IMG/VR virus record: IMGVR_UViG_3300027278_000012
Span: 8,121 to 72,120 of that record
Strand: one strand, 5' to 3'
DNA from: a virus
Taxonomy: Duplodnaviria > Caudoviricetes
Length of the DNA: 64,000 bases
Program-made: the position numbers and the translations under genes
The notes under the pieces: model-generated
Seen by the model: only the letters and a program-made list of their open reading frames with translations
Told to the model about the DNA's origin: nothing
Databases searched by the model: none
Shown here: piece after piece, positions 5,940-40,445 of the stretch
How the letters are laid out: each line of letters starts with the position of its first letter
Numbering within the stretch: the first letter of the stretch is position 1

Positions 5940-5946
5940 TAAACCT

Positions 5947-23845: not shown

Positions 23846-26719
23846 ATGAATCAATTTTGTGAAGCTATTCCATGTCCTGTTATACTAAATGCTACCTGCG
23901 TATTCTACGAAGGAGCTAGTTTAGTATGTTCAGGAATCAATACTAATGACACTCTTGAGACTGTCATAGTTAAGTTAAATCAAAAACTATGTAATGTTAG
24001 TGGAACATCTGGTACAAGTGGGACCAGTGGGACTAGTGGTACAACTGGTACATCAGGATCTAGTGGGTCTTCAGGCACTAGTGGCTCAAGTGGTACATCT
24101 GCAACTAGTGGTACCACAGGTACTAGCGGATCTTCAGGTACAAGTGGATCAAATGGTGATAGATATAAAACATCTTCTACAACAGATTTCACATTAGGAT
24201 ATGCAGGAACGCTCACTGTTGATACTGGATTAGCATATACAACAGGACAATCTATTATAATAGTTCATGATATTAATAATTATCAAGAGTGTGTTACTAT
24301 TTCTTATAATACACTCACAGGTATATTAGTATTTGGTACACCAAATTTAACTGTAGGAGCAGGAGCATTTACATCATGGATTGTAAATCTTGATGGTGCT
24401 ACAGGTGGTGATGGTTCTTCAGGAACATCAGGAAGTAGTGGAACAGCTGGTACATCTGGAACCACAGGTACAAATGGTACAAGTGGAACTACAGGAACAT
24501 CAGGTAGTACAGGTTCTAATGGTACATCTGGAACAAGAGGCTCAAACGGAACAAGTGGCACAACTGGTACTTCTGGTTCTTCTGGTACTACTGGCACTAG
24601 TGGAAGTAACGGAAGTAATGGTACATCAGGTACCACAGGAACAAGTGGTTCTAATGGATCTAATGGTACGTCAGGAATAAATGGTATAAGTGGTACATCT
24701 GGATCTAATGGAAGCAGTGGAACATCAGGATATGATGGAATAAATGGAACTAGTGGAACTACAGGTACAAGTGGAACAAGCGGAACAAGTGGAGATACTG
24801 GTAGCAGCGGAACATCTGGTACAACAGGTACTTCTGGAACTACAGGTTCAGGTGGAACTTCTGGTACATCAGGGACTACAGGAACTAGTGGTACTAGTGG
24901 TGCAAATGGTATATCATCAGGACAGATTTATTATTTTAATGAATCTCAACCATCAGGAGTTAATACTTATAAAGTGTTATCTCCAACACCATCAGCAGCA
25001 GCTGAACAAATTGTAACTAAAACATTAACTAACACTCAACAGAATGTATTAATTTCAAGTTTTATAACACCACAGCTAGGCTTCTCAGTGATACCTGGAG
25101 GCTTACAAAGATTTCATTATCATTTCTTAAAACCAGCTAGTAACGATAATATTGATGTTTATGCAACTATACAATTAGCTGATAGTGCAGGGACACCAAT
25201 TGGACCAATTATACCTACAGGTGTTTCTGCAATTGGATGGGTTACTTCTACTATACCTGTTGAGGTGACAACAGATTTAACATTAACAACAACAACAATT
25301 GATCCTACAACTAGGGTGATTGTTAAAATTTATGCAAATAATAATGATAGTGCTTCACATATTTTAAACTGGTATACAGAAGGATCTTCATATTATTCAT
25401 TTATTGTTACATCTGTTGGTGTTGTATATGCAACTTCAGGCACTAGTGGATCTTCAGGAACATCTGGTGCAATTGGTTCAACTGGAAGCTCTGGAACAAG
25501 TGGAAGTAATGGATCTTCAGGTACTAGTGGTAATACAGGATTACCTGGAACAAGTGGTACATCTGGATTATTAGGATCATTATCTGCAATAGGAAGTGTT
25601 CCTAATGCTAATGCTGCTACATTAACAGGAAATGTATTAAATCTTCAACCTGCATCAGCTTCCTTTGGTGGTGTTGTTACAACGGGTACACAAACTATAG
25701 CTGGAGATAAAAGTTTTACTGGAGCTATAGATATTAATAATAGTGGAAATTCTTTAAAAGTAACTTCAGGTCAAGGAACTGCATTGGATATTGTGGGTGG
25801 AAATAATAGCAATTCAATAGCTAAATTTACAAATGTAACTGGAACTGTAGAGGTGGGAAGATTCGATGCAACGGGTTTAAAGTTACAGTTAGAAACAGCA
25901 TCTACAATAGCTTCATTTGATGCTAATAAAAATGTGGTTAGTTTGACTACAGCAAATGGTTATCCAACATTAACAGAGTTGAAATCTCTTGTTGGAGTTA
26001 GTGCTACAGCTATTCAAACACAGTTAAATGGTAAGCAACCGATTAATGCAAATCTTACATCTATATCAGCTTTAAGTACAACAAGTGGAGCCTCATTTGT
26101 AAGAGTGTTTAATGGAACTTATTATTTAGACAATGGAAACTATTTAACTTCTGTTGGAATAGCAAATTTAACTGCAACAGGTACACCATCTGCTACAACT
26201 TATTTACGAGGTGATAATACTTGGTCATCAATTCCAGTTTCATCTCAAAGTGCTTATACAGTATTAGCTAATAATACAAATGCAAGTGCAGTACCAACCG
26301 AACAAGTATATAAAGACGTAGGTCAACAAACCTATACAGCGACACCTACTTGGTCAACATCAGCTCCAACAACTATATTGGCAAACACATACGAGTGGAC
26401 TCAAATAGGAAGTACGGTAAATGTTAGAATAAGTTTAAGTTATAATACTGGTGCAGTTAATTCAAGTGTAATACTTCCAATGCCAGCCGACATGCCAGTA
26501 CCATCATCTATAACTGGATTTACTGGGGCATTAGATATACTTGCTTATGGAAGTGGTATGATGGTAAACGCTACAAATCAAAATCCTCCAGCAGTAACAG
26601 GAGCTAGAAACTGTTTGTTAAGAAGGAACGCTGCAAACACTGGATATGAGTTCTTTGTAAACATAAGTGTAACTGTAACCACAAAAGTAGTAATTGTTAA
26701 TTTAACATATTTTGCATAA
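23846..26719 (+). CDS. Tail fibre / appendage protein with collagen-like Gly-Thr-Ser repeats
   Basis: Cys-rich N-terminus, three long G-X-Y blocks of SGT/TGT/NGT, beta-rich C-terminal part; followed by a chaperone-like gene. Confidence 0.7.
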   Translation: MNQFCEAIPCPVILNATCVFYEGASLVCSGINTNDTLETVIVKLNQKLCNVSGTSGTSGTSGTSGTTGTSGSSGSSGTSGSSGTSATSGTTGTSGSSGTSGSNGDRYKTSSTTDFTLGYAGTLTVDTGLAYTTGQSIIIVHDINNYQECVTISYNTLTGILVFGTPNLTVGAGAFTSWIVNLDGATGGDGSSGTSGSSGTAGTSGTTGTNGTSGTTGTSGSTGSNGTSGTRGSNGTSGTTGTSGSSGTTGTSGSNGSNGTSGTTGTSGSNGSNGTSGINGISGTSGSNGSSGTSGYDGINGTSGTTGTSGTSGTSGDTGSSGTSGTTGTSGTTGSGGTSGTSGTTGTSGTSGANGISSGQIYYFNESQPSGVNTYKVLSPTPSAAAEQIVTKTLTNTQQNVLISSFITPQLGFSVIPGGLQRFHYHFLKPASNDNIDVYATIQLADSAGTPIGPIIPTGVSAIGWVTSTIPVEVTTDLTLTTTTIDPTTRVIVKIYANNNDSASHILNWYTEGSSYYSFIVTSVGVVYATSGTSGSSGTSGAIGSTGSSGTSGSNGSSGTSGNTGLPGTSGTSGLLGSLSAIGSVPNANAATLTGNVLNLQPASASFGGVVTTGTQTIAGDKSFTGAIDINNSGNSLKVTSGQGTALDIVGGNNSNSIAKFTNVTGTVEVGRFDATGLKLQLETASTIASFDANKNVVSLTTANGYPTLTELKSLVGVSATAIQTQLNGKQPINANLTSISALSTTSGASFVRVFNGTYYLDNGNYLTSVGIANLTATGTPSATTYLRGDNTWSSIPVSSQSAYTVLANNTNASAVPTEQVYKDVGQQTYTATPTWSTSAPTTILANTYEWTQIGSTVNVRISLSYNTGAVNSSVILPMPADMPVPSSITGFTGALDILAYGSGMMVNATNQNPPAVTGARNCLLRRNAANTGYEFFVNISVTVTTKVVIVNLTYFA
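23999..25570 (+). repeat. Three blocks of coding (GTS)n triplet repeats
   Basis: Blocks at about 23999-24155, 24407-24920 and 25432-25570, with synonymous variation between units. Confidence 0.9.
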
Positions 26720-27135
26720 TGAGACACATAAGACAAATAAATAGTGTAGGAACAAATAGCTACACAGTAGTTGTAGCTGAAGAGCCATTAGAGAGTCACA
26801 GATCAATTATAAATCATTCAGATCTTTTTGAGATATCAGAGGATGAATTACCTGAATTTGTACAGTATGTAGACATGCAGCCACCAACAGTACCATACGA
26901 AGTACAACTATGGAGAATTAGAACTGTGTTAAAGTTGATGCAGCTAGAGGCACAGATAGAGTCTGCTATAGACGCTATGCCAGAACCTTCTAAAACTGCT
27001 GCAACATATATATGGAAGTTTGGTACAACTGTAGAGAGAGCAAGTCAGACGGTTATGTTGCTACAGTCTGCATTGCAACTTACGGACGAACAGGTAGATG
27101 ATTTATTCATACAAGCAGAAGCAATCTTATTATGA
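26719..27135 (+). CDS. Putative tail fibre assembly/chaperone protein
   Basis: W...TTVERASQTV..LQSALQLTDEQVDDLFIQA ending resembles small proteins found downstream of tail fibres; TAATG coupling. Confidence 0.5.
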   Translation: MRHIRQINSVGTNSYTVVVAEEPLESHRSIINHSDLFEISEDELPEFVQYVDMQPPTVPYEVQLWRIRTVLKLMQLEAQIESAIDAMPEPSKTAATYIWKFGTTVERASQTVMLLQSALQLTDEQVDDLFIQAEAILL

Positions 27136-27449
27136 TACTATTTACAATAGCATATGTACTCTATCTTCCACTAACTCTAATCAACTGGCTATTCGTTAAG
27201 GAAAAGTCTGGATACTTTAAGAGCAGTGCTGTTAACTTAGATAGGTTTGGTAATAGAGAGTTCAGGACCTTGTTTAATAAAGTACTTATAAATAATAATG
27301 GGCATAGATTTGGTAATATTGAAGAAACCATATCTAGTGTTTTAGGAAAGAATCAACTAACAGGTACACTCACTTGCGCTGGAAAGATCTTAGTTTGGGT
27401 GTTAGACAAGATAGATAACAATCACGCAATAAAATCAATCAATGAATAA
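27132..27449 (+). CDS. Hypothetical phage protein (LDRFGN...ETISSVLGKN type)
   Basis: Coupled ORF with N-terminal hydrophobic segment. Confidence 0.5.
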   Translation: MILFTIAYVLYLPLTLINWLFVKEKSGYFKSSAVNLDRFGNREFRTLFNKVLINNNGHRFGNIEETISSVLGKNQLTGTLTCAGKILVWVLDKIDNNHAIKSINE

Positions 27450-27705
27450 ATTTATAGAAGAAAGATGGTACATGCACCTAATAGGTGGAGCCATTACAGT
27501 AACACCAATAATTTGGTTGTTGATTAAATTTGACCCATCTTTTGATATAGGTAAGATAGCTCAGGTATTTATTGCTGGCTTCTTTGCTTATTGTATTGGA
27601 TTTATGTGGGAGTATTACTTTGCTAAATTTCATGAAGCTCCATTTGATTATAATGACATTTGGTTCACAGTGTTAGGTGCATTAATCGGAACATCATTAT
27701 TATAA
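27442..27705 (+). CDS. Small multi-pass membrane protein
   Basis: Three hydrophobic helices in 87 aa. Confidence 0.55.
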   Translation: MNKFIEERWYMHLIGGAITVTPIIWLLIKFDPSFDIGKIAQVFIAGFFAYCIGFMWEYYFAKFHEAPFDYNDIWFTVLGALIGTSLL

Positions 27706-27706
27706 T

Positions 27707-27729
27707 AAAACCCTCTACATGAGGGTTTT
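27707..27729. terminator. Bidirectional intrinsic terminator
   Basis: AAAACCCTC-TACAT-GAGGGTTTT hairpin between convergent genes. Confidence 0.85.
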
Positions 27730-29811
27730 TATTTTTTCTATCACCATCTCTGGAGTTATACTAGTCTGACATTCAAACTGTCTATCTGTACCTTTGTGAA
27801 CAGGGCACCAATTCCAATCTCCTTTATCAAACTTATATTGTGGATCATTCCAACATCCATGGCATACATTTGTGTTAACTGGTCTATGGCATGAGAACTC
27901 ATGTTGTTTGTCAGTGAAATTACTGATCATTATCACTGGTACATCTAATCCCCAAGCTAACCAACTTAGTCCACTAGATAGTCCTATAAAGAATTCACTT
28001 TGTGTTATCCATTCTATTGTGCTCTCAATTGATTTGTCAAGTAATGCATCACAGTTGTCAAATGGATTGCTTTCTAGTGATACATTCTTCACTATATATC
28101 CTTGACCATGTAAGTAATTAATCACTTCTTGCCAGTTCTCTCTGGTCCAGAACTTACATCCAGCTGTACTATTTGTAGCTATTGTAACTAGTTTATAGTT
28201 TGCTTTAAGTCCTGAGTTATGTATTCTAGGTTTGATTTCTTTATAAGGAAGTCCTAGAATGTTTGTAGCTGTTTGCTGAAGAGGAATTGTATTAGGAAGA
28301 ACAGGTTCTTTATTATCATTATAGAACCAACCAATCTTATACATTGCATACAGATTATTAACTGTAGTTCCTGGTTCCACAAATTCTAACATTGGATATT
28401 CTTTTTCAAATAAGAAGTTCTTAAATGTACTTACAATAACTTCACAGTTATGTAGACATCTAAACTCTTCTACATAAGGCATCCAAGCTATAGTATCACC
28501 TAGAGATGAACTATCAAAAGCTATATACACTCTTCTGTTCTCTAGATTTAGTATGTTATTATACACTTCCACACCATCCTTATACACTATAGTTTGCCAT
28601 CTAGTAAAGTATTCTCTGTTAAGTCTTATCCAATGGTTGCACTTTATTGTATCATAATGAACTAATTTATCACTTTCTAGATCATAAAACTCTACATCAA
28701 ATGTGCTATTGCTAGTTCCTGTTATTTCAAGGAATGGTTGTCCAACAAAGTTTTGTATGATATTATAATCATTTATAGGCTTTTTGTTCGGAATAACGGA
28801 CATTGCTTTCTCATATAATGATATGTGATGTTTAGCAAAATCATCAGTTGTATTATTAGTTAGTATATGATAATTTGTATGATCTGTTAACATATCTTCT
28901 ACCTGACGTTTTAATTTTATAGGATTTAGAGTTGTAATATACCTAGTGAACATGTTCTTGTATTGAGGAAGATCTCTAGCAATAATCTTTTTACCATAAC
29001 TAATAGCTTCTCTTAATACTAATGGATTACATTCCCATGTACTATTAAACATGAATATATCAGCAGCCATTAGAAAATATTTAGCATCATCTCTTTCTCC
29101 CCATATCTTTACATTCTCAGGAAGATCTTTCATTAATGGTTTCCAATAGTCTTCAAAGTTACCAGCTTGATTACCTACAAAGTGAAACCCTATATTTGGC
29201 ATTTGTCTAGCTAATTCAAGCATCTCTCCTTGATTCTTTCCAGGAGTCCATAAACCAATGTTTACAACATGTTTCATCTTTAGATTCATACCAAGAGCTA
29301 TCTTAGCTTCATAACAGTTATCTTCTGACACTCTATAGTTATCAATGGGGAACTCAATCACTTCTCTATAACCATCTACATCTTTAAATGTATCTAAGTG
29401 ATAAGGACTGCAGAAAGCATATGCATCAGGTGTGAATATCTTCTCAGAAGGATTGAAAGAAACATCATGACATGTCTCAACTATTCTATATTTCCTATCA
29501 GGAGAATATAATCTTGTCACCATCTTAAGATCTAGTCTTTCAGACATCTCATCTATATGTATAATGTCTGGTTTAAACTCTTCCACCACCTTGAAGATTC
29601 TCATCTTATCTTCATTCAGTGTATATAAACCTGTGAGCTTTATAATTTCATCTCTCTGTACAACATAATCTTTGCTGTAACATTGATATTCTACCACTTG
29701 AATAGATACATTTGGCAGAGTTTGCAACGCTTGTATTCTCTTAAGAAGGAATGCAGGCATACCACCTGTAGATAGGTGAGGAGCAACAAATAATATTTTT
29801 AGTTTAGACAT
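27715..29811 (-). CDS. Two-domain glycosyltransferase: N-terminal GT4-like plus C-terminal TibC/AAH-like (autotransporter heptosyltransferase family) domain
   Basis: HLSTGGMP start and DIFMFNSTWECNPLVLREA (GT4); SSSLGDTIAWMPY, FIGLSSGLSWLAW and the four-Cys CHGCW...WCP...FEC iron-finger pattern. Confidence 0.8.
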   Translation of the reverse strand: MSKLKILFVAPHLSTGGMPAFLLKRIQALQTLPNVSIQVVEYQCYSKDYVVQRDEIIKLTGLYTLNEDKMRIFKVVEEFKPDIIHIDEMSERLDLKMVTRLYSPDRKYRIVETCHDVSFNPSEKIFTPDAYAFCSPYHLDTFKDVDGYREVIEFPIDNYRVSEDNCYEAKIALGMNLKMKHVVNIGLWTPGKNQGEMLELARQMPNIGFHFVGNQAGNFEDYWKPLMKDLPENVKIWGERDDAKYFLMAADIFMFNSTWECNPLVLREAISYGKKIIARDLPQYKNMFTRYITTLNPIKLKRQVEDMLTDHTNYHILTNNTTDDFAKHHISLYEKAMSVIPNKKPINDYNIIQNFVGQPFLEITGTSNSTFDVEFYDLESDKLVHYDTIKCNHWIRLNREYFTRWQTIVYKDGVEVYNNILNLENRRVYIAFDSSSLGDTIAWMPYVEEFRCLHNCEVIVSTFKNFLFEKEYPMLEFVEPGTTVNNLYAMYKIGWFYNDNKEPVLPNTIPLQQTATNILGLPYKEIKPRIHNSGLKANYKLVTIATNSTAGCKFWTRENWQEVINYLHGQGYIVKNVSLESNPFDNCDALLDKSIESTIEWITQSEFFIGLSSGLSWLAWGLDVPVIMISNFTDKQHEFSCHRPVNTNVCHGCWNDPQYKFDKGDWNWCPVHKGTDRQFECQTSITPEMVIEKIKTLM

Positions 29812-29848
29812 TGTTTAGACATTTGTTTAGACATTCGACTTTTAAAAA

Positions 29849-29856
29849 CAAAGATA
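29849..29856 (-). promoter_or_regulatory. -7 box TATCTTTG for the inverted glycosyltransferase gene
   Basis: Plus-strand CAAAGATA about 40 nt upstream of the start. Confidence 0.55.
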
Positions 29857-29931
29857 TAAAAATATATTTAGCTTATGCTATATTATGAAGGAAATGTGAG
29901 TTGACCATTTTATTATATGGAATATATGATT

Positions 29932-29939
29932 TACATTTG
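29932..29939 (+). promoter_or_regulatory. -7 box TACATTTG upstream of the lysis cassette
   Basis: Exact TAnnTTTG in the divergent intergenic region. Confidence 0.5.
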
Positions 29940-30021
29940 TTATAAATTTTTATAATTATTTCTTCTGCGCAATCACACTCTGTGATTGTCTATTATTATA
30001 ATACTCCCACCATCTGCAATT

Positions 30022-30953: not shown

Positions 30954-31213
30954 TAAAACTATTTAAATACATAGAACCATTATGGTTAGGAACCAACAAT
31001 AAGATATCTATACGCAAGATTTTATCGTTGGCTTTTTCTATTGATTTTGTAAGCAACATTTCTTTTGTTATACATAAATGGGAAATAGGAAAATCATATT
31101 CTGATGTAGCTATGTTACTAGGACTAGAAGCTGCTCTTATAGCTGCTCTTCTATCACTCACCACATATTCAACTATGGTGGCAAATAAAAACTCAAACAC
31201 AGAAATAGACTAA
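30950..31213 (+). CDS. Putative holin
   Basis: 87 aa, two hydrophobic helices, directly upstream of the endolysin. Confidence 0.55.
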   Translation: MIKLFKYIEPLWLGTNNKISIRKILSLAFSIDFVSNISFVIHKWEIGKSYSDVAMLLGLEAALIAALLSLTTYSTMVANKNSNTEID

Positions 31214-31632
31214 TGGTAACAAGTGCACAAGCTTTAAAGAAATACGGAGACCCAACTAAAGAATCTAGTATGACATTATGGGATGTACCAAAAGAATTAG
31301 AAATTGGTGTACTCCCTAAGAGATTGTATTGTAATAAAGATATGATCCTACCATTAACGAAAGCTTTTAAAAATCTTATATCTACAGGATGTGTTAAAGA
31401 ATTAAAAACTTGGGATGGATGTTTCAATATAAGAAAGAAAAGAGGACTTGCATCAATGTCATTACATTCATGGGGAATAGCTATTGATGTAAACGCTGCA
31501 TGGAATGGATTAAACAAGGAGCCACAATTGAGTAAAGAGTTTGTTAATTGTTTTACATTAGCAGGATTTGATTGGGGTGGAACTTGGACTGGTAGGGTCG
31601 ATGGTATGCATTTTCAGTTAAAGACTATATAA
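31213..31632 (+). CDS. Endolysin, peptidase M15 family
   Basis: SLHSWGIAIDVN ... FDWGGTW ... DGMHFQL. Confidence 0.85.
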   Translation: MVTSAQALKKYGDPTKESSMTLWDVPKELEIGVLPKRLYCNKDMILPLTKAFKNLISTGCVKELKTWDGCFNIRKKRGLASMSLHSWGIAIDVNAAWNGLNKEPQLSKEFVNCFTLAGFDWGGTWTGRVDGMHFQLKTI

Positions 31633-32153
31633 TGAAAAATAGAGAAGGTTATAGAGTATGTTCTTGTTGTAAGAAAGAACAAGAGCTTATTTCTACTAAC
31701 TTCTGTTCAGATAAAAACAGAAAATCTGGATTTTCTTATAGATGTAAAAAATGTGATGCTATTAAAAAAGATAATAGAAAAGAAAGATATAAAAAACTAT
31801 CTGAAGAACAGAAAGAAGTATATAAAAGTAAAAATAGAAAATATACATCGGAAGGTTTGGGAAGAGCAACTTCACTAATATGTGCTTATAGAAAAGTAGA
31901 TAAGAAAAAAGGACAAGTTTGTAATTTAGATAGAGAGTTTATGATGACTCAAATTTTTAATAAGTCTTGTATTTACTGCAAGTCTATACAAAATATAGGT
32001 TGTGATAGAATTGATAACACTATAGGACATATAAAAACAAATGTAGTACCTTGTTGCAGAATTTGTAATACAACAAGAATGAATAATTTTTCACATGAAG
32101 AAATGTTTTTATTAGGAGAAGTTATTCAGAAGATTAATAAAAACAAAAAATAA
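31632..32153 (+). mobile_element. Free-standing HNH-type homing endonuclease
   Basis: N-terminal CxxC...CxxC finger and CIYC...CDRIDNTIGHIKTNVVPCCRICN core. Confidence 0.75.
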
Positions 32154-32608
32154 TGAGAAGATGTAATGATGTATATGAAATAGTAACTGTTTACTATCCC
32201 ACTGGCTGTGTTAATACAACTAGTACACCTACATCAACTACAACAACTACATTACCACCAACTACTACCACAACAAGTAGTTCCACTAGCACTAGCACAA
32301 GTACATCAACATCTACATCAACAAGTAGTACAACTACAACCACAACAACAAGTAATTATAATTCATATAATTATCAAGCACAATATTATGATTGTGATAC
32401 ATGTGTTAATATTGGAGGACTATCTTTAGCTAATATTGAACCTTTAACAGTTGGAAAGTGGTATAATTATACTAATAGTATTACTAACATTTCAAGAAAA
32501 GTACAAATAGTTACATATCTAGGACCTAGTTTAAGTTCACCTAATACTATTATATTAGATTCAACTAAACAAGATACATGTGGTGCACTGCCACCATGTC
32601 CAGAATAA
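32153..32608 (+). CDS. Mucin-like Thr/Ser-rich protein with Cys-containing C-terminal domain
   Basis: About 45-residue T/S tract; TAATG coupling. Confidence 0.65.
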   Translation: MRRCNDVYEIVTVYYPTGCVNTTSTPTSTTTTTLPPTTTTTSSSTSTSTSTSTSTSTSSTTTTTTTSNYNSYNYQAQYYDCDTCVNIGGLSLANIEPLTVGKWYNYTNSITNISRKVQIVTYLGPSLSSPNTIILDSTKQDTCGALPPCPE

Positions 32609-32621
32609 ATAATTTAAAACC

Positions 32622-32759: not shown

Positions 32760-32814
32760 CTTTTTTGATTATTTTAATTCATTAACAATCATGTATGTTT
32801 ACATAAATTATTCA

Positions 32815-32822
32815 TATTTTTG
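32815..32822 (+). promoter_or_regulatory. -7 box TATTTTTG
   Basis: Exact TAnnTTTG about 25 nt before ATG 32847. Confidence 0.45.
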
Positions 32823-32846
32823 TAACTACCAAACAAACAATCAATT

Positions 32847-32990
32847 ATGGCAATACCAGCTAAACAAGTCGGACAATCAGCGGAAGCTAATCTATTGTGG
32901 CAAATATCTAAGCAGTTGGAACTTTTAATTAAAGTGACAGCAGCTGGTGTAATCACTACCACCACTACTACAACTACAGCAGCACCATAA
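32847..32990 (+). CDS. 47-aa protein: MAIPxKQ leader plus poly-Thr tail
   Basis: MAIPAKQVGQSAEANLLWQISKQLELLIKVTAAGVITTTTTTTTAAP; paralogous to the N-terminus of the next gene. Confidence 0.75.
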   Translation: MAIPAKQVGQSAEANLLWQISKQLELLIKVTAAGVITTTTTTTTAAP

Positions 32991-33000
32991 TAATATAAAA

Positions 33001-33726
33001 ATGGCTATACCAAGTAAACAAATAGGTGGAAGTATAAACTATAATCTTCTTTGGCAGATATCTAAGCAATTAGAAAGATTAATTGAAGTTAGATCAAATG
33101 TTACTACATCTACTACTAGCACATCAACAAGTACAACCACTAGCACAACTACATTAGATCCTAATCTTATACCTATAGGTACCCAAATATGGACTAATAG
33201 AAACCTTGATGTTACAACATATAGAAATGGTGATGTGATTCCTCAAGTAACAGATCCAACTGCTTGGGGAGCATTAACAACTGGTGCCTGGTGTTATTAC
33301 AACAATGACCCTACAAATAATGCAGTTTATGGTAAATTATACAATTGGTATGCTGTTAACGATGCAAGAGGATTAGCACCTTTAGGCTATCATATACCTT
33401 TAAATAGTGAGTGGACAACATTGATTTCATTTTTAGGAGGGACAAGTATTGCAGGAGGGAAAATGAAATCAACAGGAACGTCACTTTGGCTAAGTCCTAA
33501 TACTAATGCAACAAACTCTAGCGGTTTTACAGGTCTTCCTGGAGGTTATCGCGTCAGTGATGGTAGTATATTCTACGGCATTGGTGAGACCGTTTACTGG
33601 TGGACTTTTTCGCAGTCCAATATTATAAACGCAGTGACCAGGTTCCTGGTTTACTATGCTGGTGCTATTAGTGTTACCACCTACGATAAGAAAGGTGGTT
33701 TCCCAGTAAGATTAATAAAAGATTAA
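33001..33726 (+). CDS. MAIPxKQ leader, Thr/Ser linker and Fibrobacter succinogenes major domain (Fib_succ_major/FISUMP)
   Basis: IGTQIWTNRNLDVTTYRNGD ... YGKLYNWYAV ... GFTGLPGGYR ... GFPVRLIKD. Confidence 0.85.
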   Translation: MAIPSKQIGGSINYNLLWQISKQLERLIEVRSNVTTSTTSTSTSTTTSTTTLDPNLIPIGTQIWTNRNLDVTTYRNGDVIPQVTDPTAWGALTTGAWCYYNNDPTNNAVYGKLYNWYAVNDARGLAPLGYHIPLNSEWTTLISFLGGTSIAGGKMKSTGTSLWLSPNTNATNSSGFTGLPGGYRVSDGSIFYGIGETVYWWTFSQSNIINAVTRFLVYYAGAISVTTYDKKGGFPVRLIKD

Positions 33727-33748
33727 AAACATAATAAACCAACTACAT

Positions 33749-34765
33749 ATGAAAGATTTAAAATTTGTACAAAGCTGCCCAAGTGATGTATATTACACAT
33801 GGCAAGTGCATTTATGGCTTGAGAGCTTAAGAAACATTGGACATAGTGATAAAGCTATATCAGTGATATTCACACCCAAGGGGAGAGAGAATAGAGACAA
33901 ATGGAAACAGATAGAAGACCTCTATCCAGAATCAGAGTTTCATTATTATAATGATGAAGACAATTTAAATCAACTGTTAGGAATATACATTCCTGTACTA
34001 AGACCATATGTACTTTGGAAACATTTTAAAGCTAATCCAGAACTAAGTGAGAAAGCAATATTCTATTGTGATTCAGATATTCTATTCACTAAAGATTTTA
34101 ATGTAGACAAGTTCTTAGATGATGAGGTTAATTATCTATCTGATACAAACAGCTACATCAATGCTACATATTTTGATAGTAAAGAAAGAGATGTTCTCCC
34201 AGAGAAGCTAGAAGCATACAAAACAAGAGATGTTCTTGGAGAAATAGCTAGTGTTATTGGTATAGATAGAGCAACATGTGAAGCTAACAACCTACACTCA
34301 GGAGGAGCACAATATCTACTAAAGAATGTAGATGGTGAGTTCTGGAGTAAGGTGATGAATGATTGCATTCTTATTAGAACCTATTTACAAACAGTGAATA
34401 GAGAATATTTTAAAGATGAGAATACAGGTTATCAATCATGGTGTGCAGATATGTGGGCTGTTCTTTGGAACTTATGGTTTAGAGAACAAGAAACAAAAGT
34501 GGTTCCTGAACTAGCATTTACCTGGGCAACAGATCCTATATCTAAACTAGACAGTCATACAATCTTTCATAATGCAGGAATAACAGGAGTATCAATGAAT
34601 GGATATCCTTGTTTCTACAAAGGAAAATATCATCAAGGGACTGATCCTACAAAGGATCCACATTTAGATGATGTATTAAATAACATAGAATCACAGAAGT
34701 ATTGCACATGGTTCTATGCAAACGAACTTAACAACATAAAACAAAAATATAAACTTAATTATTAA
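33749..34765 (+). CDS. GT-A glycosyltransferase resembling plant peptidyl-Ser/Hyp O-glycosyltransferases (GT96/GT95-like)
   Basis: YYTWQVHLWLES, YIPVLRPY, YCDSDILF (DxD), SGGAQY, SWCADMWAV follow the motif order of SGT1/HPAT. Confidence 0.6.
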   Translation: MKDLKFVQSCPSDVYYTWQVHLWLESLRNIGHSDKAISVIFTPKGRENRDKWKQIEDLYPESEFHYYNDEDNLNQLLGIYIPVLRPYVLWKHFKANPELSEKAIFYCDSDILFTKDFNVDKFLDDEVNYLSDTNSYINATYFDSKERDVLPEKLEAYKTRDVLGEIASVIGIDRATCEANNLHSGGAQYLLKNVDGEFWSKVMNDCILIRTYLQTVNREYFKDENTGYQSWCADMWAVLWNLWFREQETKVVPELAFTWATDPISKLDSHTIFHNAGITGVSMNGYPCFYKGKYHQGTDPTKDPHLDDVLNNIESQKYCTWFYANELNNIKQKYKLNY

Positions 34766-34782
34766 TAACAAAAACAATTATC

Positions 34783-34992
34783 ATGAGTAACAAGAGAGAC
34801 CTTAAGGCCTATGTAAGATTCGATGGATCTGGCAGAATTGTAGCAGGAAGTTTAGTTCTAAGAAGAAGTAAACCAAAGGTTGGTAAGTGGCAAGAAATTA
34901 CAGCATATGAATGTTGTAACTATACACCTACCACTACCACCACAACAACAGCAGCTCCTACAACAACTACAACAACAACCCCTGCACCTTAA
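34783..34992 (+). CDS. Small protein with poly-Thr/Pro tail
   Basis: 69 aa ending CCNYTPTTTTTTTAAPTTTTTTTPAP. Confidence 0.7.
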   Translation: MSNKRDLKAYVRFDGSGRIVAGSLVLRRSKPKVGKWQEITAYECCNYTPTTTTTTTAAPTTTTTTTPAP

Positions 34993-35002
34993 TATTTAAA
35001 TT

Positions 35003-35416
35003 ATGGCAATGAAATCACTATTCCCAGATGAAATGATGGGAGATAAAGGCTCTAGTCTTACATTAGAGACTATTGCAGGAAAGCTAACTTATTTTCATGA
35101 GCAGCTACATTTAACTCATTGGCAAACTAAATCATATGCAGAACATCAAGCTACTGGAGCATTGTATGATTATGTGCACGATTTCAAAGATGGATTGATA
35201 GAGAAGATTATGGGATATACAGGTAAAAGACCTGGTCCATATAAAATAGAACCTCTTATAAACTGTACAGGAATGCAATGTGCATCAGATCTTTTATCTT
35301 TTGCTTCAGAGTTAAAAGCATATGGTGAAAAGAATTCCTATCATGATGTATGTAATCTAGCAGATTCATTATCTGGAGAAGCAGCTAAAACTAAATACCT
35401 ATTAACACTGTCTTAA
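35003..35416 (+). CDS. Ferritin-like protein (DUF5856-like)
   Basis: LHLTHWQTKSYAEHQA...DGLIE...YLLTL pattern. Confidence 0.65.
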   Translation: MAMKSLFPDEMMGDKGSSLTLETIAGKLTYFHEQLHLTHWQTKSYAEHQATGALYDYVHDFKDGLIEKIMGYTGKRPGPYKIEPLINCTGMQCASDLLSFASELKAYGEKNSYHDVCNLADSLSGEAAKTKYLLTLS

Positions 35417-35704
35417 ATGCTTGTAAATAAAAAACATTTTCCAAAATTGATGCAAGATAATGATGAAACATTTCTTGCTCATTTGGAAGGTGTAATAAGC
35501 TCTGTTGATGAACTGTGTAGTCTGGAGATAACAAAGCTCTCAGACAGCTATAGATTTAGAATAGCAGCAAGCCTTCCTAAGTATAACAATATGCTTATAG
35601 AAGAAGTATTAAAATTTTGCAACATGTTCAACATAAGAGTTGATATGAGCAAAAGCATCAAGACTAGTTCTGTAATAACATTTGAAATTAGTTTGGAAGT
35701 GTAA
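35417..35704 (+). CDS. Hypothetical protein
   Basis: 95-aa ORF abutting the upstream stop. Confidence 0.6.
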   Translation: MLVNKKHFPKLMQDNDETFLAHLEGVISSVDELCSLEITKLSDSYRFRIAASLPKYNNMLIEEVLKFCNMFNIRVDMSKSIKTSSVITFEISLEV

Positions 35705-35723
35705 CATATTTGTTATACATTTG
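35692..35723 (+). promoter_or_regulatory. Bacteroidota-type promoter (-33 TTTG, -7 TACATTTG)
   Basis: TTTG at 35692-35695, 20-nt spacer, TACATTTG at 35716-35723. Confidence 0.65.
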
Positions 35724-35755
35724 TTACAATTATAAACCAATTAAATATTTACATT

Positions 35756-36010
35756 ATGGCAGAGTATAATCCTAACGCTAGGTATACATGGACTCCTGAA
35801 GACAAGTTTGAATTATCAGGACAAGAATTTGGTCTAATCCTTAATATGGTAAGATCTTATTTAGCATCAGAAGATGGCGCACGTTTTCAATTGATGTCTC
35901 AAACTAACGAAGTTATTGAGAAAATCATGAAAGCTGGTGTTGAAGCAGATGTTATCAAGGAAGTCCTTGACACTCCTACAGAAGCTCTAGAAGCTGAAGT
36001 GATGCAGTAA
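35756..36010 (+). CDS. Hypothetical acidic protein
   Basis: 84-aa ORF after the promoter. Confidence 0.65.
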   Translation: MAEYNPNARYTWTPEDKFELSGQEFGLILNMVRSYLASEDGARFQLMSQTNEVIEKIMKAGVEADVIKEVLDTPTEALEAEVMQ

Positions 36011-36069
36011 ATCACAACATACCTGTTGGGTGACGAATAACAGGTGTTCTCGAACAAAAGCACTTCTCT

Positions 36070-36273
36070 ATGAGAATATACGAACCAAAGAATAGAATAG
36101 ATGTTATAACACCTAAGGGAGAGGGGGTAATATGGTTAGTGACTGATTATGGTCATGAAACTGATACTATCTATACAATTATTATTAATACAACAGGTGA
36201 GATGTGGCAATACGCTCACAAAGATATAATCGTTAAACCTAATATAACATTTAAACGCTATGGCAAAGATTAA
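36070..36273 (+). CDS. Hypothetical protein (SH3-like small beta fold possible)
   Basis: 67-aa ORF, VITPKGEGVIW...GEMW. Confidence 0.55.
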   Translation: MRIYEPKNRIDVITPKGEGVIWLVTDYGHETDTIYTIIINTTGEMWQYAHKDIIVKPNITFKRYGKD

Positions 36274-36694
36274 AAAAGCACAAACAGGTAAAAAATTAAC
36301 TGTTTCTAAAACTAGACAAGTAGCAGATTCTTTAGATAATGAAGCAGCTAGAAAAACTAGATTGATGTATAGACAAACTGAACAAAATAAAGGACAAGCT
36401 ACAGATGAATCTGTAAAAAACTACAAGTCATCATCAAAAGATAAATCTAATGCAGATCGTTATAGAAAACTAGCAGATGCAGCTGAAAAGAAAAATAAAA
36501 TGAAAAATGGTGGAAGTCTAACTGGACTTAAAGCCTCCAACAAAAGAGTTGGTCCTGTAGATCCTAAAGGAGCATACACAAAGGTACAAAAGAAAACATT
36601 AGCTGGTGCTAAAGGAAAAGCTTCTCTTACCAAAGACAAACAACTTGGTGCTACAAAAATGGCTAAATGTGGAACTAAAATGTCTAAGAAATAA
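36260..36694 (+). CDS. Small Lys-rich protein (KKAQTG family)
   Basis: Starts MAKIKKAQTG; highly basic. Confidence 0.7.
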   Translation: MAKIKKAQTGKKLTVSKTRQVADSLDNEAARKTRLMYRQTEQNKGQATDESVKNYKSSSKDKSNADRYRKLADAAEKKNKMKNGGSLTGLKASNKRVGPVDPKGAYTKVQKKTLAGAKGKASLTKDKQLGATKMAKCGTKMSKK

Positions 36695-37044
36695 TGGCTG
36701 CTATTAAGAAAGCGCAGACTGGTAAGCGTGTAGATCCTAAAAAATATTTAGAAGAATCTCGTAAGAGAGTTGAGACTGTTACAGATTCTGCTAGAAAAGC
36801 TGAAACACGTAAAGGTATCAATACTTATGACGATTACTTAAAGTCTAAAGTTAAAGAAAAATCTAAAGCTAAATCAGGAGTTACTATAGCCAAAGATGGT
36901 ATGTGGATGCAAAAAGCTGCAGCATCTATCAAGAAGCGTGGTACTGCTGGTAAATGTACACCTATCACTAAACCTGGTTGTACTGGTAAGGCCAAGACTC
37001 TTGCTAAAACTTTCAAAAAAATTGCTAAGAAAAATAAGAAATAA
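36694..37044 (+). CDS. Small Lys-rich protein (KKAQTG family)
   Basis: Starts MAAIKKAQTG; C-terminal KCTPITKPGC. Confidence 0.7.
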   Translation: MAAIKKAQTGKRVDPKKYLEESRKRVETVTDSARKAETRKGINTYDDYLKSKVKEKSKAKSGVTIAKDGMWMQKAAASIKKRGTAGKCTPITKPGCTGKAKTLAKTFKKIAKKNKK

Positions 37045-37286
37045 TGGCAAAGAATATAACTAAGGTTCCTGATGGTCCTCTTATTAAGAAGACAGGAAAA
37101 TTCAAAGGAAGTACATTGAAAGCTGGTGGTATGATTAAACGTGCTGATGGTTCTTTTTCTAAACGTGGATTATGGGATAATTTGAGAAGCAAAGCAGCTC
37201 AGAATAAAAAAACTGGTGCAAAACCTAAAGCTCCTACTAAAGCAATGTTGACTCAGGAGAAAAAAATAAAGTCTAAAGGAAAATGA
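37044..37286 (+). CDS. Small Lys-rich protein
   Basis: KAGGMIKRADGSFSKRGLWDN; TAATG coupling. Confidence 0.65.
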   Translation: MAKNITKVPDGPLIKKTGKFKGSTLKAGGMIKRADGSFSKRGLWDNLRSKAAQNKKTGAKPKAPTKAMLTQEKKIKSKGK

Positions 37287-37906
37287 TATTAGATATTAGT
37301 AATGAGCATAAACAAAAATACTTTTCTCAGAAAGAGAAAGGAGGAGTTGTTTATAAAATCACTAATCAAATTGATGGTAAGTTCTATATAGGAAGTACAA
37401 ACAATTTGATAAAAAGATATTACACTCATATTAATCATATAAGAACTAGTAAATCTACATGTGTAAAACTAATTAGAGCAGTTAATAAGCATGGAGAAGA
37501 TAACTTCACATTTGAAATTTTATGTGAATGTTCTACTCAAGAAATACTAAAGACTGAACAAAGTTATATAGATAGTTTAAATCCTACTTATAACATTGCT
37601 AAGATTGCTGGAAGTAATCTTGGAATCAAAAGAACAGAAGAAGTTAAGCTTAAAAAATCTATATCTCAAAAAGAAAATTGGAAAGATGATGATTATAGAA
37701 GTAAGCATTTAAAAAATTTATCAAAGAATTGGAAAAGTGGAGCTTCTCATAGAATGGCTAAGCTTACAGAAAAACAAGTAATTGAAATTAAAAAACAATT
37801 AGCAAGTGGTCTTCTTCCTAAACAGGTAGCAGACAAACTTGAACTTAGTTATTACTCTATAAAAGATATTCATAGAGGAAAGACTTGGAAAAATATAAAT
37901 ATTTAA
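37283..37906 (+). mobile_element. Free-standing GIY-YIG homing endonuclease
   Basis: GVVYKITNQIDGKFYIGS...R..H...E...YN core plus NUMOD-like and HTH C-terminus. Confidence 0.85.
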
Positions 37907-37918
37907 AACTAAGAAATA

Positions 37919-38188
37919 ATGGCAACAGCAGCATGGACTCGTAAAGAAGGAAAGAATCCTTCTGGCGGATTAAACAAAAAGGGTGTAGCTTCATATAGAG
38001 CTGCTAATCCTGGTAGTAAATTAAAAATGGCTGTTACAACTAAACCTTCTAAACTTAAACCTGGAAGTAAGTCTGCTAACAGAAGAAAATCTTTTTGTGC
38101 TAGAATGGGTGGCGTAAAAGGACCTATGAAGAAACCCAGTGGTAAACCTACACGTAAAGCATTAGCATTAAAAAAATGGAACTGTTAA
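37919..38188 (+). CDS. DUF6321-like small basic phage protein
   Basis: WTRKEGKNPSGGLNKKG...RRKSFCARM...ALKKWNC. Confidence 0.7.
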   Translation: MATAAWTRKEGKNPSGGLNKKGVASYRAANPGSKLKMAVTTKPSKLKPGSKSANRRKSFCARMGGVKGPMKKPSGKPTRKALALKKWNC

Positions 38189-38252
38189 ACAAAAATGGGA
38201 AGCCTGGTCCTCCCCCTCCTCCTGGATTATAACAACTAAACAATAATATATT

Positions 38253-38813
38253 ATGGCAACAATAAAAAAAGCACAAAGCGGTGCTAAAACTACTAAAAAA
38301 CCTAAAACTGTTTCTCAAAGAATTGGAGACATAACATTAAGAGATGTTAAAAATGCTGGCGAAGATGCCTTGAATATTTCTACACTTGGAGGTTATAGTA
38401 AAGTTAAAAAAGCTCTTGGAGGTGAATATAAATATAAAAAAATAGGAGAAAAAAAGAACGGTGGTCCTGTCAAAGCTAAAAATGGTAAATCATTCCCTGA
38501 TCTTAATAAAGATGGAAAGGTTACAAAAGCAGACATCCTTAAAGGACGTGGTGTTATAGCTAAGAAAGGTGCTACAATTAAGAAAGCACAATCTGGTATT
38601 AATACATTATTACCTGGTGGGTATGCTCCTAAATCAAGAGAAGAAAGATACAACAACTATCCTAGTACAAAACCTAAACCTAAAGCTAAACCTAAAGCTA
38701 AATCTACTATTGAAGAAGCAACTCCTGAACAAGTAAAAAAATATGGAATGATGGGTTCACAACAGGCTAAATCAGGAGCTAAAATGAAAAAATGTAAAAC
38801 TGGTTGTAAATAA
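38253..38813 (+). CDS. Lys-rich protein (KKAQSG family) with an EF-hand/dockerin-like loop
   Basis: Two KKAQSG copies; FPDLNKDGKVTKADIL. Confidence 0.7.
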   Translation: MATIKKAQSGAKTTKKPKTVSQRIGDITLRDVKNAGEDALNISTLGGYSKVKKALGGEYKYKKIGEKKNGGPVKAKNGKSFPDLNKDGKVTKADILKGRGVIAKKGATIKKAQSGINTLLPGGYAPKSREERYNNYPSTKPKPKAKPKAKSTIEEATPEQVKKYGMMGSQQAKSGAKMKKCKTGCK

Positions 38814-38974
38814 TGACTTCTGGTAAAGCAAAGAAATCAGGAGCACCAAGAAAAGCTCCTAAGGTTGGAATTCCTAGAAAGGATAAACCTTTTTCAAAGA
38901 CTAAGTCAATGGATGATAAAGCTATTAGAACTTCTCCGCAACAACCAATGAAGCAAAAGAGATTATCAAAATAA
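38813..38974 (+). CDS. Small basic protein (53 aa)
   Basis: Read by hand: MTSGKAKKSGAPRKAPK...; TAATG overlap, ends just before the terminator. Confidence 0.6.
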   Translation: MTSGKAKKSGAPRKAPKVGIPRKDKPFSKTKSMDDKAIRTSPQQPMKQKRLSK

Positions 38975-39007
38975 AAGAAAGCCCTTCTATTTCTAGAGGG
39001 GCTTCTT
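38975..39007. terminator. Bidirectional terminator at the convergence of the two genome halves
   Basis: GCCCTTCTA-TTTC-TAGAGGGGC stem flanked by A-rich and T-rich tracts. Confidence 0.8.
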
Positions 39008-39079
39008 CATTTAATAGAATTGTAGTTCTATTAGCCAACATTTATTTGTTTTCACGAAGTTCAAATATACAACATTTAT

Positions 39080-39709
39080 TTATATATTATTTAATTTTTT
39101 TAATTTACTTCCCCAAGATGATATCCCTGAAGCATGATTTAAATAGTATTCCCATTCTTCTGGTATCTCATTCAAATACCAAGGGACATGCTTGATACAA
39201 TAAGGCTTATCTAATCTGATTGCTTTATATGTGAACGGTGAGTTAGGTGGATACAATGCAAATGTAGTATCTATATCAGCAATCCAACCATGTTCATTTT
39301 TGTTAATCCAAAACTTACTCTCCCACTCTATTATATTCTGTTTTAGAGGTGTTTCAGGAAGATCTAAATCTAAAGAGAATCCAACCTTCACATTGTTTTT
39401 TGCAATGTTTAACATTACATCTAACCAATCATCTGGAACTCCTTCATAAGAACAATCTGAATCAGCTATTATAAAATAATCTGTCAAGTGTTGTTTTAAA
39501 TCATTTCCCCAAACACTATGAGGACCTCCATTCACTTTAGAATATACAATCTCTACAGGACAAGTTTTATAGTATTCTAATAATGGTGGGTATGTAGATT
39601 GTTGATCATATATAATCACATCTATTCTACTCTCTTTAGATAAGAACTCTACTGTTTCTTTTAATGTAGTTAGAAGATTTCTATTTACTATTATTGCTTT
39701 CACTGACAA
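39080..39709 (-). CDS. GT2-like glycosyltransferase
   Basis: IIVNRN...VIIYDQQSTYPPL...YFIIADSD (DxD). Confidence 0.7.
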   Translation of the reverse strand: MSVKAIIVNRNLLTTLKETVEFLSKESRIDVIIYDQQSTYPPLLEYYKTCPVEIVYSKVNGGPHSVWGNDLKQHLTDYFIIADSDCSYEGVPDDWLDVMLNIAKNNVKVGFSLDLDLPETPLKQNIIEWESKFWINKNEHGWIADIDTTFALYPPNSPFTYKAIRLDKPYCIKHVPWYLNEIPEEWEYYLNHASGISSWGSKLKKLNNI

Positions 39710-40445
39710 AATCTTTTAACATTTGTGCATAGTCTTTGTTCCAATGAGGATTTAAATGAATATCTCCTGTAGGGATAAGATTTTTTTGTCTCAAGGTTTC
39801 TATATGTTTACTATGTCTTTGTATGATGTTAGGCTTATCTGCAGTGTCTGTACCTTCTCCAGATTGATGATAACCTCTACCACCCCACATATAAAACCAA
39901 GAAGCTTCTGAGTCAGGCATTTTTGCATCAATAACATGTGCTCTACCAAAGGAATGTATTCTACTAACTAATGTAGTATCTCCTCCAGCATTCTCTATAG
40001 GACTCTTTCCAATTGCTTCCCAAACTTTTTTACTGTATACAATACCTGAGTTACCAATTCCCATTATCTTTGTTATACTGGGCTCATTGTAATACACACC
40101 TGTTTGCCAATGCAAGATGTTAGTATCTTCTTTCCAAAATTTAGCTATGTTTGATAGATGATTAGACAAAGCTATATCATCATCATCCCATACAGCTATT
40201 AGTTCTCCAGAACATCTTTCTATAGCATAGTTTTCTTTATCTCCAATAGTGGGAAATGTTTCATCTAGATTATAAATTTTTATCTCTGGGTGATCATACA
40301 CTAACTTCTGAAGAGGGTAATCATTAACTATAATAAGTTCTTTCTTACCAGGATACTCTTGTTGGAGGAAACTTTGTATAGATTCCTCCAGAGTATCTAC
40401 TCTTCCATAAGTAATGCATTTAGCAGATATGAAAGGATATTCCAT
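39681..40445 (-). CDS. GT2 family glycosyltransferase
   Basis: CITYGR...SFLQQEYPG.KELIIVND...IGDKEN...AVWDDDD. Confidence 0.85.
   Translation of the reverse strand: MEYPFISAKCITYGRVDTLEESIQSFLQQEYPGKKELIIVNDYPLQKLVYDHPEIKIYNLDETFPTIGDKENYAIERCSGELIAVWDDDDIALSNHLSNIAKFWKEDTNILHWQTGVYYNEPSITKIMGIGNSGIVYSKKVWEAIGKSPIENAGGDTTLVSRIHSFGRAHVIDAKMPDSEASWFYMWGGRGYHQSGEGTDTADKPNIIQRHSKHIETLRQKNLIPTGDIHLNPHWNKDYAQMLKDFVSESNNSK

Follow-up and report, generated by a model that had tools for sequence, protein, structure and literature searches.

Does a phage that carries four glycosyltransferase genes beside genes for Ser/Thr-rich proteins put sugars on its own particle? The question is raised by bases 8121–72120 of a 72-kb IMG/VR virus record (IMGVR_UViG_3300027278_000012), a 64,000-nt stretch that we call the window. 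Two of its enzymes carry most of the argument: a 698-aa fusion of a GT4 glycosyltransferase to a TibC/Aah-type O-glycosyltransferase (GT4-TibC), next to a Ser/Thr-rich tail fibre gene, and a 338-aa glycosyltransferase (p338), encoded among four small genes with runs of Thr codons. The other two belong to family GT2. An earlier note, made from the letters of the window alone, had placed all of these features correctly, as judged by profile matches, fold and run counts, and had joined the four enzymes in one multi-sugar pathway. The evidence points instead to two independent modules, and we think it fairly likely that both are cytoplasmic O-glycosylation systems acting on the phage's own structural proteins (Table 1).

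Table 1. Positions of the genes and other features of the window discussed in the text; main subjects first, other features below
Feature	Position	Strand	Description
Tail fibre, 957 aa	23846-26719	+	Pfam Collagen and PHROG tail-fibre families; proposed acceptor of the GT4-TibC enzyme
GT4-TibC fusion, 698 aa	27715-29811	-	GT4 domain N-terminal, TibC/Aah-type O-glycosyltransferase domain C-terminal (~370-698)
151-aa protein	32153-32608	+	31-residue pure Ser/Thr run (37-67), Cys-containing C-terminal domain; homologues in relatives; proposed acceptor
47-aa protein	32847-32990	+	Shared N-terminal module (MAIPxKQ...LLWQISKQLE), then T8-AAP; proposed acceptor
241-aa protein	33001-33726	+	Shared N-terminal module, 17-residue Ser/Thr stalk (35-51), Fib_succ_major (FISUMP) domain; proposed acceptor
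p338, 338 aa	33749-34765	+	Soluble GT-A glycosyltransferase, PHROG 4417, GT8-like fold, DxD = D108-S-D110; proposed poly-Thr O-glycosyltransferase
69-aa protein	34783-34992	+	Ends T7-AAP-T7-PAP; proposed acceptor
209-aa GT2-like protein	39080-39709	-	PF00535, E-value 8.5e-06; overlaps end of 254-aa GT2 gene
254-aa soluble GT2	39681-40445	-	PF00535, E-value 7e-12; DDDD at 87-90; possible chain-extending enzyme
4376-aa open reading frame	5947-19077	+	Structural block
G+C-rich hairpin, then T run	27707-27729		Between convergent 87-aa gene and GT4-TibC gene; terminator-like (consensus scan only)
M15 endolysin	31213-31632		
173-aa protein	31632-32153	+	Cys-rich and Lys-rich, several CxxC pairs
Small Lys-rich proteins	36260-38813	+	144, 116, 80, 89 and 186 aa, in a row
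GIY-YIG endonuclease	37283-37906	+	PF01541, E-value 1e-10
LAGLIDADG endonuclease	62349-63131	-	Between ResIII/Helicase_C gene and DnaB_C-type helicase gene (61270-63987)

The identity of the fusion enzyme was established with family models. Its C-terminal part (residues 369–696) scored 269 bits against TIGR04414, the model of the bacterial autotransporter heptosyltransferases (BAHT), for which the equivalog cut-off is 200, and residues 373–690 matched the sequence of TibC in PDB entry 4rap with an E-value of 6e-52. The GT4 domain (PF00534, residues 176–321) was found with an E-value of 2e-09 and 37.6 bits, against a gathering score of 26.4. A TibC/AAH-like enzyme fused to GT4, as had been proposed, is thus borne out. 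Residue roles were taken from the TibC structure paper (PMC4358343) and mapped onto the 698-aa protein, and conservation was scored in 72 distinct phage homologues of 47–88% identity. Invariant positions were D439, which corresponds to the catalytic base Asp-110 of TibC; T549, K553 and W617, which correspond to the donor contacts Thr-226, Lys-230 and Trp-305; and C650, C653, C669 and C681, the counterparts of the iron-finger residues Cys-339, Cys-342, Cys-358 and Cys-370. The position that sets stereoselectivity is Ser, like in Aah. In the GT4 domain the EX7E motif consists of E260, again invariant, and E268, kept in 69 of the 72.

The fibre encoded beside this enzyme holds 144 Ser and 167 Thr, together 311 of its 957 residues, and matched Pfam Collagen (PF01391) with an E-value of 9e-37. 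The GTS repeats noted earlier are therefore of the collagen type. G-X-Y triplets number 91 and form four blocks (residues 53–106, 184–357 and 532–579), the longest with 58 triplets, and the prevailing type is G-[ST]-[STN]; globular domains are present besides. Ser or Thr fills 145 of the 182 X and Y positions and Pro only one, so this is not a collagen rich in Pro or hydroxyproline. The N-terminal anchor of ∼48–50 aa is conserved even in relatives whose fibres are free of collagen.

Enzyme and repeat were found together in many other phages. The fusion is present in 251 viral contigs. Of 41 loci centred on it and no shorter than 18 kb, 38 hold an open reading frame (ORF) in which Ser/Thr makes up 45% or more of a 150-aa stretch. 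The usual partner is a divergently oriented, Pro-free collagen-like protein of 500–3000 aa. In jumbo-size contigs (160–326 kb), the enzyme adjoins a ∼1000-aa (TPTxT)n protein in place of the collagen fibre; it is extended there by a methyltransferase domain, and a GT9 enzyme is encoded as a second neighbour. To find closer relatives of the phage we used the neighbouring 1559-aa protein, and their entire records were then searched; 17 of these relatives are at least 90% complete, with lengths of 104–125 kb. All nine of these with GT4-TibC have Collagen matches, from 5 to 27 each. Six of the eight without it have none and the other two have two weak matches each, in one case Pro-rich rather than Ser/Thr-rich. 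Judged by the 1559-aa protein, the nearest complete relative is G004 (71% identity), which has lost both GT4-TibC and collagen; in more distant ones both are present. Mapped on the tree of this protein, the GT4-TibC state changes five times, four of these changes being forced by supported branches, and every change is concordant with the collagen state.

The make-up of the fusion varies among phages. Some relatives encode the TibC and GT4 domains by two distinct genes, and in others the protein is preceded by a fused FkbM or class-I methyltransferase; such arrangements fit a small glycan-building assembly. Two relatives have glycosylation clusters more compact and larger than that of the window. 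In L031 (5188–11899) a 1156-aa FkbM-GT4-TibC protein adjoins DUF6165, a p338 homologue, a GT2 and a Methyltransf_24 protein; in L046 (4070–12172) a 1210-aa methyltransferase-GT4-TibC protein with a 313-aa GT9 neighbour lies beside a 1064-aa (TPTxT)n protein. These clusters suggest that the putative glycans are methylated. A cultured example is Microcystis phage Mel-JY01 (L246; PP395634.1), which encodes a 1226-aa GT4 and TibC-type protein annotated as 'methyltransferase FkbM' (regions 4750–8430 and 11243–13162). That annotation looks incomplete, and the phage may offer a tractable system. Its gene adjoins that of a 508-aa structural protein with 26% Ser/Thr, which is non-repetitive; a cytidylyltransferase-like protein is encoded near, and no strong repeats were found in the neighbours of the GT4 and TibC-type protein.

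The second enzyme belongs to a family without annotated function. No Pfam, NCBIfam or PDB sequence match was found for p338, only PHROG 4417. This family is large, with 2741 close relatives by word-index search and 758 representative clusters, and p338 is highly conserved in metagenomes. An AlphaFold 2 (AF2) model made with 57 diverse relatives reached a predicted local distance difference test (pLDDT) score of 97 and has a GT-A fold. Its closest folds were glycogenin (Z 14.3), AgtA (Z 14.2), LgtC, UGGT and GlyE (Z 13.2), with a Foldseek E-value of 4e-07, and D108 and D110 were invariant in 58 sequences of the family. Judged by this modelled fold, p338 would be a GT8-like retaining GT-A enzyme.

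The earlier note had called two of the glycosyltransferases protein-modifying and had likened p338 to plant SGT1/HPAT. The former holds by type or context for GT4-TibC and p338; for the latter label no confirmation was found, and the fold of p338 is GT8-like. Kinship with SGT1/HPAT gained no support from Pfam scans of p338 and its 57 relatives: PF23452 (HPAT) had no match in p338 and one among 58 family members (E-value 0.012). In one Atlas neighbour cluster, 10% of the members carry PF23452.

Around p338 in the window lie the four poly-Thr genes. Runs of at least seven Thr codons were found on the coding strand only, and a control read backwards gave 0–3 runs in 17 of 18 genomes, the exception being G029, with 22 in the control vs 3 real ones. 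The poly-Thr runs are beyond chance. The 47-aa and 241-aa proteins have a 30-residue N-terminal module in common, and the latter also carries the FISUMP domain (PF09603, E-value 2.5e-40). In relatives the 47-aa protein recurs beside p338 at 53–100% identity, residues 3–47 of the 69-aa protein are conserved there too, and the same poly-Thr genes flank p338 where GT4-TibC and collagen are both missing. Among the near-complete relatives p338 is present in 15 of 17, and these have 1–30 runs of at least seven Thr codons; the two without it have 0 and 1.

The claim that the glycosyltransferases accompany Ser/Thr-repeat structural proteins thus stands, for GT4-TibC and p338 each with its own class across many phages. 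Enzymes in relatives that lack such proteins, a finding the earlier note had named as one that would speak against it, are mostly not seen: in the near-complete relatives GT4-TibC never occurs without a Ser/Thr collagen, and genomes lacking p338 keep at most a single poly-Thr run.

The pairing of p338 with poly-Thr also reaches far from the window phage. With single distant proteins as queries we collected 95 loci of a clade ∼32% identical to p338, their contexts taken from IMG/VR, and 67 of them had a run of at least seven Ser or Thr residues inside 1.5 kb. The gene immediately upstream carried multiple poly-Thr runs in six of six loci inspected. For this set the backwards-read control is biased, as reversed Thr codons encode Ser, Thr, Pro or Ala, and we used the near/far ratio and the genomes without p338 instead. 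Among cultured phages inspected, a p338 homologue stood beside poly-Thr-bearing proteins in 10 of 10, most of them annotated head or tail proteins ending in poly-Thr. The bearer is the major tail protein in phiFL1A, VPE25 and bIL285; the major head protein, the major tail protein and a 125-aa protein in iLp84; a tail and a head protein in 1706; and the tail tube and a 132-aa protein annotated as major head protein in phiCTP1. Semele, likewise counted among the phages with annotated head or tail proteins as bearers, has a poly-Thr protein of 115 aa just upstream and one of 168 aa with a poly-Thr end. PT94 has an unannotated protein of 109 aa (T14) immediately upstream, and Chryseobacterium phage MA9V-3 an unannotated protein in the same place. 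In ENFP1 the nearby proteins have (TTVAP)n repeats, not pure runs. The link between p338 and poly-Thr is the most consistent pattern in our analysis.

Two further observations concern the runs themselves. In Lactococcus phages 1706 (L247, 468–2528 and 3238–3975) and bIL285 (L251, 6129–6737), head and tail proteins end in T9–10 followed by (H/R)HD, which suggests a defined C-terminal tag and not a random low-complexity tail. Complete relatives have more poly-Thr runs far from the p338 gene (G008, 54.9–60.1 kb; G004, 49.9–62.3 kb; G033, 84.1–85.6 kb). Structural proteins beyond those of the window probably carry the poly-Thr tag as well, and the missing 36% of the record may hold some.

The two-module reading is built on the observed enzyme families, catalytic residues, folds and acceptor-like repeats, and on the way enzymes and repeats co-occur and adjoin one another in many phages. 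Which proteins accept sugar, which sugars are used, in what order the enzymes act and what the glycans do for the phage is inferred from these. Structural proteins would be decorated in the infected cytoplasm, before or during assembly, with sugar donors supplied by the host. In the first module, the TibC-type domain would put the first sugar on Ser/Thr at X and Y positions of the Pro-free collagen-like repeats and the fused GT4 domain would add a second. In the other, GT8-like p338 would glycosylate the poly-Thr stalks and tails of its four small neighbours; in the 241-aa protein the stalk would display the FISUMP domain as a binding domain. The two GT2 enzymes may extend the glycans, which is the weakest step. 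Likely effects are stiffer or stabilised stalks, shielding, and a stabilised Pro-free triple helix, of the kind that glycosylated Thr brings about in certain animal and bacterial collagens.

Several points weigh against this reading. The source record is estimated to be only 64% complete. A strong Ser/Thr repeat was not found nearby in 3 of the 41 loci centred on GT4-TibC, nor in 28 of the 95 distant p338 loci. Genes for sugar-donor synthesis (SIS_2/GmhA, NTP_transferase) were not found among 18 relatives, so that the donors would have to come from the host. In the TibC-type domain, Arg-286, which in TibC contacts adenine N1 and gives specificity for ADP-sugars, is replaced by Thr598; among the 72 homologues this column holds Thr in 64, Val in three, Lys in three and Leu in two, and never Arg. 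The HMMER alignment also has a 10-residue gap opposite TibC ∼261–270, the place of the tip of the beta-hairpin thumb (Phe-265/Val-266), by which TibC dimers are joined in a dodecamer ring. Because Arg-286 and this dodecamer thumb are missing, donor and quaternary structure may differ from those of TibC. As for the N-terminal beta-barrel (TibC_1st, PF21129), the alignment to TibC begins at its residue 43, and a search for PF21129 gave no match in the window protein and a weak one, 20.5 bits and under the cut-off, in the Mel-JY01 homologue. Going by its residues, the 698-aa enzyme appears to be a catalytically intact TibC relative, probably with a different quaternary structure and possibly with a different nucleotide donor; it passes the BAHT family model and should work like a BAHT enzyme, yet is not a typical member. 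The remaining points are the character and place of the GT2 genes and the close linkage and small numbers behind the fibre comparison, and each of these bears on another explanation.

The 254-aa and 209-aa GT2 proteins scored 46.0 and 26.2 bits against PF00535, where the cut-off is 23.3, and PDB sequence searches with both gave nothing. D87–D90 is invariant in 17 GT2 sequences. An AF2 model of the 254-aa protein (pLDDT 85) matched GT2 folds with Z of 16–18, the nearest being heparosan synthase, TarS, TarP, RmlT and SpsA. This is a generic GT2 fold whose nearest matches are polysaccharide and teichoic-acid enzymes, and the gene pair sits at the end of the minus-strand operon on the replication side. 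The GT2 enzymes had been proposed as participants in glycosylation of the virion, which the fold does not uphold. Such features count in favour of a rival view, in which all the glycosyltransferases, or the GT2 pair at the least, would modify host envelope glycans (lipopolysaccharide, capsule or other polysaccharide) during infection, with the Ser/Thr-rich proteins as unmodified linkers; the purpose could be to exclude superinfecting phages or to stop progeny from re-adsorbing to lysed cells. NCBIfam gave weak matches to exopolysaccharide, colanic-acid and teichuronic glycosyltransferases, all far under their cut-offs; the GT2 genes share the minus strand with early or replication genes; and serotype-changing phage glycosyltransferases are well known, according to reviews cited in PMC12619734. 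We nevertheless regard modification of the host envelope as unlikely. TibC-type enzymes are soluble protein O-glycosyltransferases, not enzymes of lipid-linked glycans (PMC4358343), and no membrane segments were predicted for the four glycosyltransferase proteins in the models made. The repeat class that goes with GT4-TibC, and likewise the one that goes with p338, is gained and lost together with its enzyme and recurs beside it in unrelated phage lineages; an enzyme directed at the host would have no reason to behave in this way. Even the GT2 genes are confined to genomes with p338 (13 of 13; four near-complete genomes have no GT2), and in L031, L068 and L075 a GT2 directly adjoins the p338 homologue, close to GT4-TibC and with methyltransferases. 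That the GT2s extend chains on phage glycans is, on these grounds, suggestive but weak, and they may well act on the host envelope instead.

Co-occurrence of GT4-TibC with its fibre could arise by cassette co-transfer alone, because the two genes lie 1–10 kb apart in nearly all loci. Fibre cassettes would then be exchanged between these phages and the enzyme would hitch-hike, its target being something else, for instance a host protein. Recombination concentrates in tail-fibre regions. No more than four or five independent transitions can be counted, and contrasts on well-supported branches number only four, with which a sign test cannot reach significance (p = 0.125). Because the contrasts are so few and the genes linked, the (TPTxT)n acceptor class in another genomic background is the stronger argument against hitch-hiking: in the 160–326 kb contigs the same enzyme adjoins these repeats and not collagen, which transfer of one cassette would hardly produce. 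The catalytic residues of GT4-TibC are also strictly conserved, and the known family members modify repetitive Ser-rich passengers encoded alongside them (PMC4358343). Pure linkage strikes us as quite improbable.

Glycosylation of phage DNA, as hypermodified bases for evading restriction, is very unlikely, because neither the record nor its 17 near-complete relatives hold a gene of the thymidylate-synthase or hydroxymethylase families, BAHT, GT4, GT8-like and GT2 are not known DNA glucosyltransferase families, and p338 homologues sit inside siphovirus head and tail modules, even though DNA is a common substrate of phage glycosyltransferases (Pyle et al. 2024, as cited in PMC12619734) and a deoxynucleoside monophosphate (dNMP) kinase gene (PF21448) lies near the GT2 genes.

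Two modules acting on structural proteins remain the reading we prefer, and a wider one may follow from it. Poly-Thr runs and Pro-free G-S/T-S/T triplets could be portable 'glyco-tags', read by PHROG 4417 and by BAHT-GT4 fusions in phages of Bacteroidota, Bacillota and cyanobacteria; we put this forward tentatively, as a proposition that could go either way. If it is true, many phage particles would wear a glycan coat of their own making, including those of Enterococcus, Lactococcus, Lactobacillus and Staphylococcus phages, which matter in therapy or as a dairy nuisance. Glycan would also take the place of hydroxyproline as stabiliser of the triple helix, making the transferase an obligatory factor of fibre maturation. 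Already the two-module reading gives a testable function to the large unannotated family PHROG 4417, and it extends the TibC/Aah family to phage fibres, where the fusion is widespread. To our knowledge, that family has been known only as an adhesin-maturation factor of proteobacteria, and actinobacteriophages (mycobacteriophages) are the only phages in which glycans put on virions by the phage's own enzymes have been measured; there they change antibody recognition. In a literature search no paper was found in which phage fibres or poly-Thr tails are tied to PHROG 4417 or to enzymes of the TibC type. The reading is directly testable, because predicted enzyme-acceptor pairs occur in cultured phages (phiFL1A, VPE25, iLp84, 1706, phiCTP1, MA9V-3 and Mel-JY01). 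If true, it bears on the immunogenicity and stability of phages, on the folding of Pro-free collagen-like fibres, and on short tags, encoded genetically, by which proteins could be glycosylated in bacteria.

The genome in which the two modules lie has no similar isolate; at the DNA level the whole region had no match in the phage collection searched. Its G+C content is 30–38% along the window. A plus-strand structural block with the 4376-aa ORF and the 1559-aa protein meets a minus-strand replication block with genes for PhoH, dNMP kinase, RecA, helicases and endonuclease VII. The 1559-aa protein is 22% identical to a protein of the uncultured crAss-like phage cr108_1. A PHROG search (E-value 1e-05) gave no match for the 4376-aa ORF and nothing useful for its neighbours, so that the term 'crAss-like' rests on the genome layout and the 22% match, and this placement is plausible but not established.

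Other genes of the window deserve mention. Between the M15 endolysin gene and the first poly-Ser/Thr gene lies the gene of a 173-aa protein that had no Pfam match and no homologue in 80 related loci; it looks like a strain-specific insertion. The five small Lys-rich proteins had no family match. Three of them start with MA(K/A/T)IKKAQ(T/S)G, a motif that recurs inside the 186-aa protein, and they may be paralogous proteins, either virion-internal or DNA-binding. Inserted among their genes is that of the GIY-YIG endonuclease, probably a homing endonuclease. The LAGLIDADG gene, flanked by helicase genes, may likewise be a mobile insertion in the replication module.

Among known systems, TibC-TibA and Aah-AIDA-I of E. 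coli (BAHT family; PDB 4RAP and 4RB4; PMC4358343) come closest to the first module. The phage domain is ∼40% identical over ∼320 residues and keeps the catalytic Asp, the Thr, Lys and Trp that contact the beta-phosphate and sugar, and the four-Cys iron finger. In both cases the gene for a soluble cytoplasmic enzyme lies beside that for a highly repetitive, Ser/Thr-rich fibrous protein. Enzymes of the BAHT type take heptose from ADP-heptose and modify autotransporter passengers, which a phage would not be expected to encode. The candidate acceptor in the phage is, however, a collagen-like G-X-Y fibre (or PT repeats) rather than the beta-helical passenger of an autotransporter. Unlike TibC, the enzyme is phage-encoded and fused to GT4, in relatives also to methyltransferases, and it has the Arg-286 replacement and the deleted thumb of the dodecamer ring.

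For p338 the nearest counterparts are GT8-type enzymes: glycogenin, GlyE (5gvv), the galactosyltransferase AgtA (6mw8), which acts on Skp1, and the catalytic domain of UGGT. Their folds match the whole 338-aa model with Z of 13–14 over 208–249 aligned residues, with the DxD motif. Several of them transfer sugar to proteins or protein-bound glycans, and GlyE belongs to the serine-rich-repeat adhesin pathway of S. pneumoniae. Identity to p338 is only 8–13%, and p338 forms a sequence family of its own. Plant SGT1 (GT96, a peptidyl-Ser galactosyltransferase) and HPAT (GT95, a hydroxyproline arabinosyltransferase) act on repetitive Ser/hydroxyproline-rich proteins; no solved structure of the SGT1/HPAT family was among the matches in fold searches with p338.

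The fibre itself has parallels in other collagens. BclA of the Bacillus anthracis exosporium has GXT repeats with O-linked oligosaccharides, and in the cuticle collagen of Riftia galactosylated Thr stabilises a triple helix poor in hydroxyproline. As in the phage triplets, Thr stands there in place of Pro or hydroxyproline, and O-glycans are carried on those Thr; the enzymes are different, and the proteins are cellular or animal ones, not a phage fibre.

The closest precedent for the whole comes from mycobacteriophages, in which phage-encoded glycosyltransferases O-glycosylate virions (Freeman et al. 2023, Cell Host Microbe, PMID 37329881, as cited in PMC12619734, PMC13313380 and PMC11256854). 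As these papers describe that work, the glycans sit on C-terminal parts of capsid and tail-tube subunits, much like the poly-Thr tails on head and tail proteins near p338 homologues; both systems combine a phage-encoded glycosyltransferase with Ser/Thr-rich extensions on structural proteins, the extensions here being predicted from genes. Because virion O-glycosylation is thus already published, the concept, for which the earlier note knew of no description in crAss-like phages, is not new; the enzymes and acceptors appear to be. The enzymes here are the BAHT-GT4 fusion and PHROG 4417. The phages are of Bacteroidota type or infect Bacillota, host phyla other than that of the mycobacteriophages, and the acceptors here include collagen-like fibres and free-standing stalk proteins.

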